Source: Gemmatimonadales bacterium
Lineage (GTDB): Bacteria; Gemmatimonadota; Gemmatimonadetes; Gemmatimonadales; GWC2-71-9
DNA: 64,000 nucleotides
Assembly: GCA_037189525.1 (NCBI GenBank)
Contig: JBBCJC010000003.1
Span: 535,609-599,608 of the forward strand
Direction: 5' to 3'
Below the pieces are notes generated by a model. That model was not told where the DNA came from, made no database searches, and was given only the letters and a program-made list of their open reading frames with translations. Shown one piece after another: positions 38,286-43,847 of this stretch. Position 1 is the first letter of the stretch. Each line of letters begins with the position of its first letter. The translations under genes and the position numbers were made by a program.

Positions 38286-38297
38286 GGACGGTTGGCC

Positions 38298-39179
38298 ATG
38301 TCGAATAACCTGCAGCGCATCCTCTTTGCCGTCATTGCCATTCCGATTGCCCTCGGGGTCGTCTACTGGGGCGACTGGCCGCTGGCGGTGCTCGTCGCGC
38401 TGATCGCCGCGCTTGGCGCGAAGGAGATGGTTTCGCTGGCGCGGCACCAGGGCCTCGCGCCGCTCGACAAACATGCCATCGCCTTTTCCACCGTCATTCC
38501 GATCGGGGTTTGGCTGACCTACGGCGGCCAGCCGATTGCCTGGGGTAATTTCGCGCTGACGTCGCTGATGCCCTCGGTCTGGTTTACCCTGGCCGGTACG
38601 GTCATCTGGATTCTGACCGCGACCCTGATCCGTCGCAATCCCGATGAGCGCCCGCTCGGCGTGGCAAGCGTCACCTTACTGGTGCCCCTCTACTGCGCCG
38701 TCCTGCCCAGCTTTCTTCTGGGGATCCGGTATGCCACAGGGCTCGGCCGGAGTTGGGAAGCGACCGCGGCAGTCTTCTTTCCGCTGGCGGTGACCTGGAT
38801 CTGTGACACCGCCGCGATGTACGCGGGCAAGGCCATCGGCGGAGCGAAGCTTGCACCGGTTGTGAGCCCCGGTAAGACACGGGCTGGGTCGGTCGCCGGG
38901 CTGATTGCGGGCCTGGTCACCGCGGTCCTGTTCAATCGGCTGGTGATGACGCCGTTAGGGTTCACCATCAGCGATCTCGAAGCCGTGGCGTTCGGCGTGG
39001 TGCTGTCGGTTGCTGCGCAAATCGGTGACCTGGCCGAGTCGCTCTTCAAGCGGGAGGCGGGGGTCAAGGACTCGAGCGGGCTGATTCCGGGCCATGGCGG
39101 AGTTCTCGATCGCTTCGACGCACTGTACTTCGTGGTGCCGATCGCGGCGATGCTCTACAGCATCTTCGGCGTGATCTGA
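38298..39179 (+). CDS. cdsA: Phosphatidate cytidylyltransferase
   Basis: Multi-TM protein; SPGKT, GDLAESLFKR..GVKDS..IPGHGGVLDRFD. Confidence 0.96.
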   Translation: MSNNLQRILFAVIAIPIALGVVYWGDWPLAVLVALIAALGAKEMVSLARHQGLAPLDKHAIAFSTVIPIGVWLTYGGQPIAWGNFALTSLMPSVWFTLAGTVIWILTATLIRRNPDERPLGVASVTLLVPLYCAVLPSFLLGIRYATGLGRSWEATAAVFFPLAVTWICDTAAMYAGKAIGGAKLAPVVSPGKTRAGSVAGLIAGLVTAVLFNRLVMTPLGFTISDLEAVAFGVVLSVAAQIGDLAESLFKREAGVKDSSGLIPGHGGVLDRFDALYFVVPIAAMLYSIFGVI

Positions 39180-39187
39180 TTCCAGCC

Positions 39188-40321
39188 ATGCGCGGTGTTG
39201 CCGTCTTGGGATCGACCGGGTCGATCGGTTGTTCCACGCTCGATGTGCTGCGCCGGCACCGCGACCGTTTCCGCTTGGTGGCGCTCACCGCCGGTACCAA
39301 TGCCGCAGCGCTTGATGCGCAGGTGGCGGAGTGGCAACCGGTGTTTGCCGGCCTGGTCAACGGCACGGTCGGCGGCAGCCGGGCCAACGGGACGGCCTGT
39401 CTGGTCGAGGCCGCCACCCATCCCGATGTCGATATCGTCGTCAATGCCGTGGTCGGATTTGCCGGACTCGAAGCGACGCTCGCGGCGCTGGAAGCGGGCA
39501 AGCGGGTTGCCCTGGCCAACAAGGAGTCGCTGGTCGCTGCGGCATCGCTGGTCGAACGGGCCCGCCGCAGGGGCGGCGGGGAACTGGTGCCGGTCGATTC
39601 GGAGCATAGCGCGGTGCTCCAGTGCCTCACGACCGACGGCCCGCGTCCGACCCGGCTGATTCTCACGGCTTCCGGCGGACCGTTTCGCGACTGGCCCGCC
39701 GATCGGGTGGTGGCCGCCACGGTGTCCGAGGCGCTGCAGCATCCGACCTGGCGGATGGGTAGCAAGATCACGGTCGACAGCGCGACGCTGGCCAACAAGG
39801 CGCTCGAGGTCATCGAGGCGCATGTTTTGTTCGATCTCCCGTACGATGCGATCGACGTCGTGGTGCATCCGCAGAGCGTGGTGCATGCGTTCGTCGAGTT
39901 TGCCGATGGCAGCGTGCTGAGCCAGCTCGGCTATCCGTCGATGGAATTGCCCATCCTCTATGCGCTGACCTATCCGGAGCGGTTGCCGGATGCGGGCGTT
40001 CGCCGGTTCGATCCGGTCACGGCCGGTCCGCTCACCTTCGAGCCGGTTCGTCACGATGTGTTCCGTACCTTTGCGATCGGCGTGGCCGCCGGCCGCGCAG
40101 GCGGTACGGCGCCGGCCGTGTTCAACGCAGCCAACGAAGTGGTGGTTGCGGCGTTCCTGGCCGAGGAGATCGGATTTGGCCGGATTGCTGAAGTGGTCGA
40201 TCAGGTGCTGGGGTTGCATCGGACCGAACCGGCCGACGACCTCGTCGCGATTCGGCGGGCGGATGCCTGGGCCCGCACGGCCGCGCGGGCTACCATCGAG
40301 GGCACGCGGGCCGGGGTGTAA
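39188..40321 (+). CDS. dxr: 1-deoxy-D-xylulose 5-phosphate reductoisomerase
   Basis: LGSTGSIG, LANKESLV, PVDSEH, HPTWRMGSKITVDSAT, NAANE. Confidence 0.97.
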   Translation: MRGVAVLGSTGSIGCSTLDVLRRHRDRFRLVALTAGTNAAALDAQVAEWQPVFAGLVNGTVGGSRANGTACLVEAATHPDVDIVVNAVVGFAGLEATLAALEAGKRVALANKESLVAAASLVERARRRGGGELVPVDSEHSAVLQCLTTDGPRPTRLILTASGGPFRDWPADRVVAATVSEALQHPTWRMGSKITVDSATLANKALEVIEAHVLFDLPYDAIDVVVHPQSVVHAFVEFADGSVLSQLGYPSMELPILYALTYPERLPDAGVRRFDPVTAGPLTFEPVRHDVFRTFAIGVAAGRAGGTAPAVFNAANEVVVAAFLAEEIGFGRIAEVVDQVLGLHRTEPADDLVAIRRADAWARTAARATIEGTRAGV

Positions 40322-40356
40322 CGCCGTCTGTTACTCGATGGGGGTGGGGGGTGGGC

Positions 40357-40385
40357 TTGCGCAAATCCTAACGACTTCCCAGATT
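40357..40385 (+). promoter_or_regulatory. Putative promoter of the aromatic-amino-acid operon leader
   Basis: TTGCGC(40357-40362), 17-bp spacer, CAGATT(40380-40385); predicted +1 at about the leader ATG (40392). Confidence 0.45.
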
Positions 40386-40391
40386 AGAAAC

Positions 40392-40487
40392 ATGCGCTCG
40401 ACCCGATTCTATTCGTTTGCGACCTATTTTACCTACGCGGCGTATTTTGCCAGCGGGGGAGTGGCTCGCATGCGTAGATCAGGCTGA
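40392..40487 (+). CDS. Phe/Tyr-rich attenuator leader peptide (31 aa)
   Basis: [31 protein letters not shown]: 4 Phe and 4 Tyr in codons 6-19, directly upstream of a terminator and of aroF-pheA-aroH. Confidence 0.85.
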
Positions 40488-40514
40488 CAGTAGCGCCAGA
40501 CGCAAGCGAACCAC

Positions 40515-40546
40515 GGCCCCCGCAAATCGCGGGGGCCTTTTTGTTT
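40515..40546 (+). terminator. Attenuator (intrinsic terminator)
   Basis: GGCCCCCGC-aaatc-GCGGGGGCC followed by TTTTTGTTT. Its 5' arm can alternatively pair with GCGGGGG at 40453-40459. Confidence 0.88.
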
Positions 40547-40567
40547 GCCCAAAGCCCCGAGGATCCG

Positions 40568-41410
40568 ATGACCGCGTTTTCTGCCCAGCTGCCTGCGACC
40601 GTTCCCGTCACCGTCGGGGATCGGTGCTGTTTTGGTGGCACCGATCTCGTCGTGATCGGCGGGCCCTGCTCGGTCGAGAGCGCGGCCATGGTACTCGACA
40701 CCGCGTTGTCCGTGGCGGCGTCCGGAGCGCGGATGCTCCGGGGTGGGGCCTTCAAACCGCGCACCTCGCCCCACACCTTCCAGGGAATGGGCGACCCGGC
40801 GCTCGACCTGCTGGCCCAGGCCGGCGAACGGGCCGGTCTCCCGGTCGTGACCGAAGTGACCGATCCTCGGCACGTGGATCGAGTGGCCGGGGTGGCCGAC
40901 ATGCTCCAGGTCGGCGCCCGCAACATGCAGAACTACGCCTTGCTCGCCGAGGTCGGCCGGAGTGGAAAGCCGGTCCTGCTCAAGCGCGGCCTGGCCGCGA
41001 CGCTCAAGGAATTCCTGCTTGCTGCGGAGCATATCCGGGTCGCGGGGAACGATGCGGTGGTGCTCTGTGAACGCGGGATCCGCACCTTCGAAACCGCCTC
41101 CCGTTTCACGCTCGATGTCACCGCCGTTCCCGTCCTCAAAGCCGAGAGCCACCTGCCGGTCATCGTGGACCCGAGCCATGCGGGCGGGCGCGCCCCGCTG
41201 GTGGCCCCGCTGGCCCGGGCGGCCATCGCGGCAGGTGCGGACGGGTTGATCGTCGAGGTACACCCCGAGCCGGCGACGGCCCAGTCCGATGCGGAGCAAT
41301 CGCTGACGTTCGCCGCGTTTGCGGAGCTGATGGTGCAGGTGGAGCGGGTGGCGCTCGCCGTGGGGCGGACCATCGGTGCCGCGCCGCTGGCCGTCGGGGC
41401 CTCGGTATGA
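40568..41410 (+). CDS. aroF: DAHP synthase, type I-beta, catalytic domain only
   Basis: [52 protein letters not shown]; no N-terminal ACT or CM domain. Confidence 0.93.
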
Positions 41411-41958
41411 TGCGGATTGCCATTCAGGGCGAACTGGGCGCCTTCTCCGAGATCGCGGCCGACTATATGAGCCGGGGCGAGCACGAGGTGGTTCCCACCC
41501 GCTCGTTCCGGGACGTGGTCGAGGCGGTGGAGAGTGGCCGGGCGGATGCCGGTGTTCTCCCGATCGCCAACAGTATCGTGGGGCCGGTGGTGGACAGCGT
41601 CGATGCCCTGGCAAGCGGGACGGCGGTCCTGGTCGATGGCGAATGCGACGTTCCGGTGCGCCTCCACCTGATGGGCCTGGGCGCGGCCACCCTCGACCGC
41701 GTGGCGCACGTCGCATCCCATCCCGTAGCATTGGCGCAGTGTACTCGTTTCCTTGGCGGCCATCCCGATTGGTACGTCGAGACCTATTACGACAGCGCGG
41801 GCGCGGCGCGTGACGTGGCCGCGCGCGGGGATTCTTCGTTCGTCGCCATCGCGGGCGACGCTGCCGCCACGCGGTATCGGCTTGCCATTCTGGCCCGCGA
41901 CGTCCACGATCTGCCGGACAACTCGACCCGCTTCGTGCTGATTCGGAGGCGCCCATGA
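41407..41958 (+). CDS. pheA: Prephenate dehydratase, catalytic domain only (no ACT domain)
   Basis: [29 protein letters not shown]; the protein ends 7 residues after TRF. Confidence 0.88.
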
Positions 41959-42332
41959 CCCGCCGGATGTGGGGCCTTCGCGGCGCCATCACCGTCGACG
42001 CCGACCGTCCGGAGCTGATCCGGGCCGCGACGCGCGAACTGCTCGAGACGCTCGTCACCAGGAACGACCTGGATCAGGACGAGATCGTGAGCGCCATCTT
42101 CAGCGTCACCACCGACCTCGTGAGCGAATATCCGGCTACGGGTGCTCGCGAGCTGGGTTGGGTGGAGGTGCCGCTGCTCTGCACGACCGAGATTCCGGTG
42201 CCCGGCGGCCTTCCGCGGGTCATTCGGGTCCTGCTGCATGTCGAGCCTGCCGTGCCGCGAGCCCGATGGCAGCCGGTCTACCTCCGGGGGGCCACGGTGC
42301 TGCGTCCCGATCTGGTGCCGGTCCCCTCCTGA
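41955..42332 (+). CDS. aroH: Chorismate mutase, AroH class
   Basis: GLRGAITV, FSVTTDL..YPA..AR, VPLLCTTEIPVPG, YLRGATVLRPDL. Confidence 0.94.
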   Translation: MTRRMWGLRGAITVDADRPELIRAATRELLETLVTRNDLDQDEIVSAIFSVTTDLVSEYPATGARELGWVEVPLLCTTEIPVPGGLPRVIRVLLHVEPAVPRARWQPVYLRGATVLRPDLVPVPS

Positions 42333-42509: not shown

Positions 42510-43847
42510 GTGGGCTTAACGATCATCTCGACACTCGTCGTCATCGGTGTGCTCGTGTTCATCCACGAGCTGGGGCATTTCCTGGCCGCGAAGTGGGCCG
42601 GGATCCATGTCCACCGGTTCTCGCTGGGCCTGGGCGCGCCGATTCGCTGGCTCTCGTTCAAGCGCAACGAGACGGAATATTCCGTGTCCTGGCTGCCGCT
42701 TGGTGGGTACGTCAAGATGGCCAGCGACATGGAAGAAACCGATGCGATGCTCGAAGGCGGGGCGGAGCAGGTCGAAGTGCCCCGCGAGCGCCGCTTCGAA
42801 GCCAAGCCGATCTGGGTTCGGATGGTCGTGATCCTTGCCGGCGTAGTCATGAATGCGCTGTTTGCCTGGCTGGTGCTGTCCGGACTGATCTACGTCCGGG
42901 GCCGGCCGACGCTCCCGGTCACCACGATTGCCGGCGTCGACTCGACCCGGCTGCCGGCCGGCGCGCGCGGGTTGGAACTGGTGGCGCGGGGCGATCGCGT
43001 CGTGGCGGTCAACGGCGTTGCCGTGACGACCTGGGAAGAGATGCAGCGGGAGTGGTTGGGAATCCGCGATACCGTCACGATTGACGTGGCGGGCAAGAGT
43101 CCGGTGGTCATTGCCGGCTCGCTCGAAGACCGGAGGACGGCGCTCACCACGATGCGTCCCTTGCTTCCTCCGGTCGTGTCGGATGTGGTGCCGCAGCGAC
43201 CCGGAGCGCAGGCCGGCCTGGCCCGGGGCGATACGATCGTCACCTTCGATGGCGCGGCCGTCGGCGAGTGGCGCGAGATGGTGAGCCGGATCGAAAGCAA
43301 GGCCGATCAGCCAGTGGAACTGCTCGTCGGCCGTCCGACCGGGCGTACCGTCATCCAGGTCACTCCAGCCGCTGAGGACGTGGAGGGCCGGACCGTCGGA
43401 CGCATCGGGATTTACGGACCGCTCCAGCCGGAACTCCGCGAGCGGGTCGGGCTTGGGACCGCGGTGGTCGAGGGCGGTGAATGGACCTGGTTCATTGCGA
43501 CCCAGATTGCCAACACGGTGCGCGGGATGTTTTCGGGGCGCGTCTCCACCCGCGAGGTGGGCGGCCCGATTGCCATCGGCATGGCCGCCGGGGAGAGCGT
43601 TCGGCGGGGAGCCGAGGACTTCCTGGTGTTCATGGCGGCCATTTCCGTCAACCTGGCCGTGCTCAATCTGCTGCCGATTCCGTTGCTCGACGGCGGGCAG
43701 TTCCTCTTCCTGCTGGCGGAAGCGGTCACCCGGCGCCCGATAACGGGACGGGTGCGGGAATGGCTTACCATGGCCGGCTTCGTGGCGCTGGTGATGCTGA
43801 TGGTATTGGCCTTCTCCAACGACATCCGGCGGTTGCTCGGCATTTGA
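42510..43847 (+). CDS. rseP: RIP metalloprotease RseP
   Basis: HELGH, PLGGYVKM, two PDZ-like regions, NLLPIPLLDGG. Confidence 0.96.
   Translation: MGLTIISTLVVIGVLVFIHELGHFLAAKWAGIHVHRFSLGLGAPIRWLSFKRNETEYSVSWLPLGGYVKMASDMEETDAMLEGGAEQVEVPRERRFEAKPIWVRMVVILAGVVMNALFAWLVLSGLIYVRGRPTLPVTTIAGVDSTRLPAGARGLELVARGDRVVAVNGVAVTTWEEMQREWLGIRDTVTIDVAGKSPVVIAGSLEDRRTALTTMRPLLPPVVSDVVPQRPGAQAGLARGDTIVTFDGAAVGEWREMVSRIESKADQPVELLVGRPTGRTVIQVTPAAEDVEGRTVGRIGIYGPLQPELRERVGLGTAVVEGGEWTWFIATQIANTVRGMFSGRVSTREVGGPIAIGMAAGESVRRGAEDFLVFMAAISVNLAVLNLLPIPLLDGGQFLFLLAEAVTRRPITGRVREWLTMAGFVALVMLMVLAFSNDIRRLLGI

Follow-up and report, generated by a model that had tools for sequence, protein, structure and literature searches.

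An aromatic leader ahead of aroF

The stretch of DNA analysed here (the window; 64,000 nt) comes from a Gemmatimonadales genome and carries, between dxr and three genes of aromatic biosynthesis, a short open reading frame (ORF) dense in phenylalanine (Phe) and tyrosine (Tyr) codons and an intrinsic terminator behind it. The three genes form an operon for DAHP synthase (aroF), prephenate dehydratase (PDT) and chorismate mutase (CM). Judged from sequence, the leader appears to be a working ribosome-mediated (leader-peptide) transcription attenuator of the aroF-PDT-CM operon, a reading to which we give a probability of about 85%. It most likely switches the Phe/Tyr synthesis genes on when Phe/Tyr are scarce. 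The original prediction had likened the arrangement to E. coli trpL and pheL, and the components of that layout are all there: an upstream ORF (uORF), the alternative pairings 1:2, 2:3 and 3:4 among four RNA regions, an intrinsic terminator and cognate genes downstream.

The leader ORF occupies 40392..40487 on the plus strand and consists of 31 codons and a stop (ATG 40392, TGA 40485-40487). Its translation agrees with the earlier description: codons 6-19 contain four Phe codons (6, 9, 13 and 19) interleaved with four Tyr codons (7, 12, 15 and 18) and no Trp codon, that is, eight F/Y in 14. Three of the Phe codons are TTT and one is TTC; three of the Tyr codons are TAT and one is TAC. In the long ORFs of the genome TTT stands at 21% and TAT at 35%, and the leader thus favours the rarer codons. 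ARAGORN identifies a single gene for tRNA-Phe(GAA) and a single one for tRNA-Tyr(GTA); each codon pair thus relies on one tRNA. Eight or more F/Y residues are found in 6 of the 7,439,880 stop-free stretches of 14 codons in the six frames of the whole genome, and these six collapse into three loci, the leader ORF being one of them. The presence of an F/Y-dense leader at this locus is not chance. The two other dense loci lie on the minus strand of contig C1 (~450420-450460) and of contig C2 (~385650-385670); one is a Tyr/Gly-rich repeat and one a Phe/Ala-rich membrane-like stretch.

Alternative structures of the leader RNA

A consensus scan places the terminator at 40515..40547 on the plus strand, with a stem of 9 bp, a loop of 5 nt and a T tract, in line with the prediction of a terminator beginning at 40515. 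The arms GGCCCCCGC and GCGGGGGCC span 40515-40537, all nine pairs are G-C and the tail is TTTTTGTTTG. The hairpin alone (3:4) has a free energy of -21.5 kcal/mol. It is situated 194 nt past the dxr stop codon and ends 21 nt short of the aroF ATG region.

Upstream of the terminator the plus strand can be divided into three regions with overlapping partners. Region 1 (40394..40442) forms the 5′ side of the 1:2 anti-antiterminator in the RNAfold minimum free energy (MFE) structure and holds six of the eight F/Y codons. Region 2 (40448..40496) is the 3′ arm of 1:2, and its portion 40453-40475 also serves as the 5′ arm of the antiterminator. Region 3 (40499..40523) is the 3′ arm of the antiterminator, and its final 9 nt (40515-40523) double as the terminator's 5′ arm. 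The antiterminator (2:3) spans 40453-40523 and comprises 20 bp (7+4+4+5) in the helices GCGGGGG/CCCCCGC, GUGG/CCAC, UCGC/GCGA and UGCGU/ACGCA; RNAfold returns exactly the four that had been proposed, at -39.8 kcal/mol. It is mutually exclusive with the terminator, as 40517-40523 is common to both. The isolated 1:2 hairpin has a similar stability (-38.7 kcal/mol). The protector stem of the original prediction needs a partial correction. Its pairing CUACGCG/UGCGUAG can form (6/7 pairs in the local fold of 40433-40477; -6.1 kcal/mol for this register alone), but RNAfold prefers the longer register 40394-40442/40448-40496.

Shuffled controls indicate that these pairings exceed chance. The whole leader (40380-40548, 169 nt) has a predicted folding energy of -70.5 kcal/mol; 200 dinucleotide shuffles of it average -54.1, and none is as good (z -3.9; 0/200). 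Its MFE structure is a long imperfect 1:2 hairpin, with Tyr18 and Phe19 at the tip, followed by the terminator, and includes a further 9-bp helix (40502-40510 / 40540-40548) that encloses the terminator. The duplex of regions 2 and 3 has z scores of -5.6 and -5.3, depending on which partner is shuffled, with 0/1000 shuffles as good. The duplex of regions 1 and 2 is of moderate significance (z -2.45; 11/1000 shuffles as good).

A putative promoter and a leaderless start

The block at 40350..40385 on the plus strand is conserved and may contain the promoter, with TTGCGC at 40357-40362, a 17-nt spacer and CAGATT at 40380-40385. The leader ATG begins 6 nt past this -10-like hexamer and no Shine-Dalgarno sequence precedes it. 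A consensus promoter scan called no plus-strand promoter upstream of the leader. The putative promoter is proposed because the block is conserved and its geometry is common to the leaders of the Trp and His operons of the same genome, described below. All three leaders (Phe/Tyr, Trp and His) follow one plan: a -35-like TTGnCn, 17-18 nt, a hexamer, 6 nt and the ATG, with no Shine-Dalgarno sequence at any of them. The 6 nt before the ATG are where the three near-identical copies of the Phe/Tyr leader differ in an alignment. This arrangement suggests that the leader mRNAs are leaderless or almost leaderless.

How the switch would operate

Transcription would start at or just before the leader ATG and probably give a leaderless mRNA. 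When charged tRNA-Phe and tRNA-Tyr are ample, the ribosome would pass the F/Y codons and move into codons 20-31. It would then sit over region 2 (40448-40496) while the polymerase makes regions 3 and 4, leaving the terminator to form and transcription to stop before aroF. A ribosome held up on any Phe or Tyr codon among codons 6-17 would instead keep region 1 open and region 2 free. Free region 2 could pair with nascent region 3, removing the 5′ arm of the terminator and permitting read-through into the operon. Should the leader not be translated at all, 1:2 pairing would again let the terminator form.

A ribosome-occlusion model was used to follow this switch along the ORF. The A-site codon was kept unpaired together with 15 nt on its upstream side and 10, 13 or 16 nt on its downstream side. 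The readout was how probable the outer antiterminator helix is when the transcript stops at 40526, before the 3′ arm of the terminator. With the A site at codons 6-15, which include six of the eight F/Y codons, the antiterminator is predicted at 0.99-1.00 with all three footprints. With the +10 footprint the value is 0.84 at Tyr18, 0.36 at Phe19 and 0.00 at codons 20-28; longer footprints reduce it at codons 16-19. The modelled polarity, with the antiterminator free at codons 6-17 and blocked at 20-28, fits attenuation.

Conservation and genomic setting

Forty-one genomes were sampled from the same genus, family and order, the source genome included. Among them DAHP synthase orthologues at ~92% identity occur only in G021 and G005, and in both the gene order dxr-leader-aroF-PDT-CM-rseP is identical to that of the source genome (G000). 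The leader peptide is unchanged in G005 and differs by A25V only in G021; the leader DNA has 96% identity in G005 and is nearly the same in G021. Across the three genomes ~40350-40550 is almost invariant and the spacer from the dxr stop to 40349 is divergent and unalignable. The few differences within the leader are a synonymous TAT/TAC change at Tyr12, two changes in the terminator loop and one in the terminal loop of the antiterminator. When 400 further genomes of the order were searched at the DNA level, a full-length leader turned up in G005 only (G021 lies outside that sample), and 29 other genomes match a short part, mainly the terminator-like stretch. The best named DAHP synthase relatives in a scan of genome contigs belong to Gemmatimonadaceae and Gemmatimonadales at 61-70% identity, which places the window in Gemmatimonadota. 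In a metagenome scan none of the best 80 aroF relatives exceeds 68% identity. At 30 dxr loci, the aromatic genes stand between dxr and rseP in three (G000, G005 and G021) and rseP comes directly next in 25, with two left undetermined. The segment 40322-42509 looks like a cassette that entered one subclade between dxr and rseP with its own attenuator.

Public sequencing runs labelled as RNA contain matching material. Six runs matched, with small shares of 0.06-0.23, and in the four examined further (X1, X2, X3 and X6) single low-depth contigs of 151-239 nt cover the leader at >=99% likeness, with none as alike over aroF. One leader contig has 26 unlike letters upstream of 40347. Such contigs carry no starts, ends, strand or level and allow no conclusion on transcription, habitat or attenuated transcripts.

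The source genome is 4.65 Mb in size, with 65.5% G+C and 98% completeness. Upstream of the leader lie cdsA (38292-39179) and dxr (39188-40321). The first gene of the operon (40568..41410, plus strand) encodes a type I-beta DAHP synthase of 280 aa that consists of the catalytic core (Pfam PF00793 only) and has no N-terminal regulatory domain; a Shine-Dalgarno sequence, GAGGA, stands at 40559-40563 ahead of its ATG at 40568. It is followed on the same strand by a PDT of 183 aa (41407..41958), in which the catalytic domain (PF00800) takes up residues 4-182 and no ACT domain is present, and by an AroH-type chorismate mutase (CM_1, PF07736) of 125 aa (41955..42332). The original prediction had named the operon aroF-pheA-aroH. 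Consecutive stop and start codons overlap, and rseP (42510-43847) lies downstream.

The operon holds the sole PDT match and the sole CM_1 match of the genome in a Pfam search, and CM_2 has no match there. Two other DAHP synthase paralogues are encoded elsewhere, both with a ferredoxin-like domain (PF18152), which the operon copy alone of the three lacks. The PDT orthologue in L033 has an ACT domain, and in L037 PDT is fused to CM_1. The ferredoxin-like domain of DAHP synthase and the ACT domain of PDT carry feedback inhibition. Since the DAHP synthase and PDT of the operon lack these allosteric domains, control at the RNA level would be expected to matter more for them. Chorismate mutase serves Phe and Tyr alike; beyond it, PDT is specific to Phe, and the operon has no enzyme specific to Tyr.

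The Tyr branch of this genome may be unusual. PDH_N (PF02153) has no match in the whole genome, and PDH_C (PF20463) matches a TyrA-like gene on contig C5 (775986-776288), away from the operon. The same contig carries a Biopterin_H (aromatic amino-acid hydroxylase) gene at 484269-484811. The idea that Tyr is made solely from Phe was abandoned because of the PDH_C match on contig C5, which exists in the genome together with the Biopterin_H gene.

Weighing the interpretation

Several results weigh against an attenuator. The promoter hexamers are weak, each with only three of six positions in agreement with the sigma-70 consensus (read by eye). In the ribosome-free truncated transcript the antiterminator reaches 0.97-0.99 at equilibrium, and the terminated state of an untranslated leader would therefore rest on 1:2 forming first, a matter of kinetics. 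Once the transcript is complete, equilibrium favours the terminator for most positions of the stalled ribosome, and the antiterminator reaches a probability of at least 0.3 solely at codons 12, 13, 14 and 17; read-through must therefore be kinetic. Textbook attenuators likewise decide read-through kinetically. Comparison of relatives yields no covariation support, because there are just three near-identical leader copies. Alignment of the regions upstream of aroF, proposed in the original prediction, does reveal the F/Y-rich uORF in the relatives; in these few copies the sole helix position that varies on both sides, 40465/40510 in 2:3, reads C.A, U.C and C-G across the three genomes, which is not a compensatory pattern. 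The leader also falls far below the gathering scores of the Rfam families Phe_leader (RF01859; 17.5 vs 55 bits) and Leu_leader (RF00512; 19.9 vs 50). None of its seven matches in Rfam 15 (E up to 10) comes near a gathering score, and no T-box or other known cis-regulatory RNA was found there. Finally, a cross-lineage test took the sequence between the last aromatic codon and the terminator and compared the energy of its duplex with the terminator 5′ arm against 300 dinucleotide shuffles. Only 12 of 27 leaders reached z <= -2 (median z -1.33; focal leader -2.0). This test is crude and lends weak support at most, since the region boundaries had to be guessed.

The likeliest of the alternatives accepts the attenuator and disputes one of its inputs. 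In practice it might sense Phe alone, the Tyr codons adding little. In C. glutamicum the aroF operon, despite the Phe-Tyr-Phe of its aroR leader, is described in a review as rising in transcription on Phe limitation and indifferent to Tyr (PMC11802643). The presence of PDT in the operon and of the TyrA-like PDH_C match on contig C5, with no Tyr-specific enzyme alongside aroF, points the same way. Against this, the four Tyr codons remain interleaved with the four Phe codons in all three genomes, one of them kept through the synonymous TAT/TAC change, and Tyr-rich or mixed leaders are found again at orthologous loci. The mask model predicts the antiterminator as readily at Tyr12 and Tyr15 as at Phe13, and the genome's only detected chorismate mutase, required for Tyr too, is in this operon. 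We regard sensing of Phe alone as unlikely, though well worth keeping in mind. Dual Phe/Tyr sensing is plausible, and the odds that Tyr acts as an input in its own right are about even.

Three other alternatives are much less likely. That the hairpin and T tract merely terminate or insulate cdsA-dxr, with a fortuitous F/Y ORF, would account for a terminator 194 nt past the dxr stop with none other between, and for the lack of a Shine-Dalgarno sequence at the ORF. It is hardly credible, however, given that F/Y density of this order occurs at merely three loci of the genome and here directly precedes Phe/Tyr genes, that the ORF is conserved and the dxr-proximal spacer is not, and that the complementarity of region 2 to region 3 with its terminator arm is better than in 1000/1000 shuffles. 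Moreover, 25 of 27 other dxr loci have no aro cassette and place rseP 60-267 nt past dxr, and similar leaders stand before non-syntenic orthologous operons. A trans-acting product, either a small hydrophobic/aromatic peptide or the liberated leader RNA acting as a small RNA with attenuation secondary, has a precedent in the trans functions described for the peptide and RNA of the Sinorhizobium trpL attenuator (PMC7298713, PMC7968998), and the short RNA-labelled contigs confined to the leader would weakly agree with it. The analysis indicates no target for such a product, and leader peptides at orthologous loci are alike in composition and not in sequence, as expected if the codons alone matter; a main role in trans is thus very improbable. 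Control of translation by sequestering the aroF ribosome-binding site, or termination by Rho, is equally hard to credit in place of an intrinsic terminator. The 9-bp MFE helix 40502-40510 / 40540-40548 around the terminator could be read in that sense, but GAGGA at 40559-40563 is outside every predicted leader helix, and a stem of nine G-C pairs ahead of a T tract has the canonical form of an intrinsic terminator. Ribosome-mediated attenuation stays the preferred reading.

A more ambitious proposal joins the mechanism to the gene content. The leader would act as a two-input OR-gate, in which Phe or Tyr starvation alone relieves termination, and would be the main control of an operon free of allosteric domains that holds the cell's only CM and PDT; leader and three genes together would form a portable cassette between dxr and rseP in one subclade. 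We advance this combination tentatively, at slightly less than even odds. If it is true, then, together with a Trp leader before a DAHP synthase-trp operon, this lineage would use leaderless leader-peptide attenuators to assign its DAHP synthase isozymes to different end products. Enterobacteria achieve that partition through feedback inhibition and repressors.

Other leaders in the genome and beyond

A genome-wide scan of 359 terminator-like sites for codon-biased small ORFs upstream recovered three leaders: the Phe/Tyr leader, a Trp leader and a His leader. The Trp leader (L223; contig C3, 116409-116483, minus strand) has a run of three Trp with a fourth past a Pro and a strong terminator. 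The operon behind it starts with a DAHP synthase that carries the ferredoxin-like domain and continues with trpE, trpG, trpD and trpC/F. The same Trp-rich leader motif also stands upstream of the same DAHP synthase paralogue in at least eight other genomes of the genus. The His leader (L224; contig C1, 590568-590654, minus strand) has seven His in eight codons and a terminator, and it precedes hisG, hisD and hisC. Both are laid out like the Phe/Tyr leader, in start geometry, run of cognate codons, terminator and operon, and differ from it in having one regulatory amino acid each. A candidate Cys leader on contig C2 (314712-314762, minus strand) was rejected as chance; the gene downstream encodes a Big_2-domain protein and is not a cys gene.

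Elsewhere in Gemmatimonadota, in other genera and families, orthologues of the operon DAHP synthase (63-70% identity) are preceded by different aromatic-rich uORFs, each followed by a strong hairpin and a T tract. The aromatic residues read, in order, FFFYFYY in L004, FFFFFF in L009, FWFYYYFFY in L006, WYFFYF in L034 and FFFYF in L037, and the leaders of L031 and L033 are F/Y/W mixtures. The order aroF-PDT-CM recurs in L004, L034, L037 and L038, and aroF-PDT in L031 and L033. A broader survey took all fetched DAHP synthase loci with at least 450 nt upstream (n=173) and scored uORFs 8-50 codons long that have F/Y/W at five or more of ten positions and end no more than 110 nt before a perfect-stem terminator. 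Twenty-six of the 173 loci were positive, compared with none in the reverse-complement control and one in downstream regions. The positives include Acidobacteriota, Bacillota and Gracilibacteria, and mixed aromatic leaders before DAHP synthase are therefore widespread. Mixed F/Y/W leaders with terminators were noted before type I-beta DAHP synthase at L051, L075, L086, L099 and L101 and at metagenome loci L143-L204. Leaders of this kind could be of use in genome annotation and in the engineering of aromatic pathways.

Relation to known attenuators

Regulation in Gemmatimonadota is almost unstudied, and the locus offers a compact, testable attenuator that may integrate two amino acids. Its context adds to its value, with three attenuators in one genome and DAHP synthase paralogues of which one stands behind a Trp leader and another behind the Phe/Tyr leader. 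A literature search outside subscription journals and supplements found no leader-peptide attenuation in Gemmatimonadota; what joined the name Gemmatimonadetes to transcription attenuation, in the part available, was a paper on ECF sigma factors. The available text of an older survey of Actinobacteria lists no attenuators for Phe or Tyr genes (PMC1262725). In Acholeplasma, the uORFC-13-1 motif has been predicted as a uORF with conserved Phe beside an intrinsic terminator upstream of aroF (PMC8632094). As described there, it belongs to another lineage, is a different motif and relates to Phe only, as a prediction.

The mechanism and the type of the attenuator are known already, and it is not a new mechanism. 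The E. coli leaders pheL-pheA and trpL-trp, whose mode of action is summarised in a recent review (PMC11802643), share with it the logic of four regions, similar stabilities of 1:2 and 2:3 with 3:4 stronger, regulatory codons in region 1 and cognate genes downstream. Unlike them, the Gemmatimonadota leader is proposed to sense two amino acids and probably has no 5′ UTR (untranslated region) or Shine-Dalgarno sequence, and it is without sequence or structure homology to the E. coli elements. Its ORF also spans the whole of region 2, which places the stop codon inside the antiterminator loop.

The closest counterpart is aroR-aroF of C. glutamicum, and the hint of novelty in the original prediction was too strong on its account. 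A Phe-Tyr-Phe leader was predicted there from RNA-seq by Mentz et al. 2013 (PMC4046766), and the review credits aroR attenuation to Neshat et al. 2014, reporting that Phe limitation raised transcription and that Tyr had no effect (PMC11802643). Leader peptides lacking a ribosome-binding site also have a precedent in that species, to judge from the title of Morbach et al. 2000 as cited in PMC4046766. From these accounts, the two systems have in common a mixed Phe/Tyr leader ORF directly upstream of a DAHP synthase gene and ribosome-mediated attenuation. In aroR, an element of Actinomycetota, the regulatory codons are described as a single Phe-Tyr-Phe triplet, whereas the Gemmatimonadota leader spreads four Phe and four Tyr codons over 14. 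Compared by description and not by sequence, the operon in Gemmatimonadota additionally places PDT and chorismate mutase behind the leader, where C. glutamicum has aroF.

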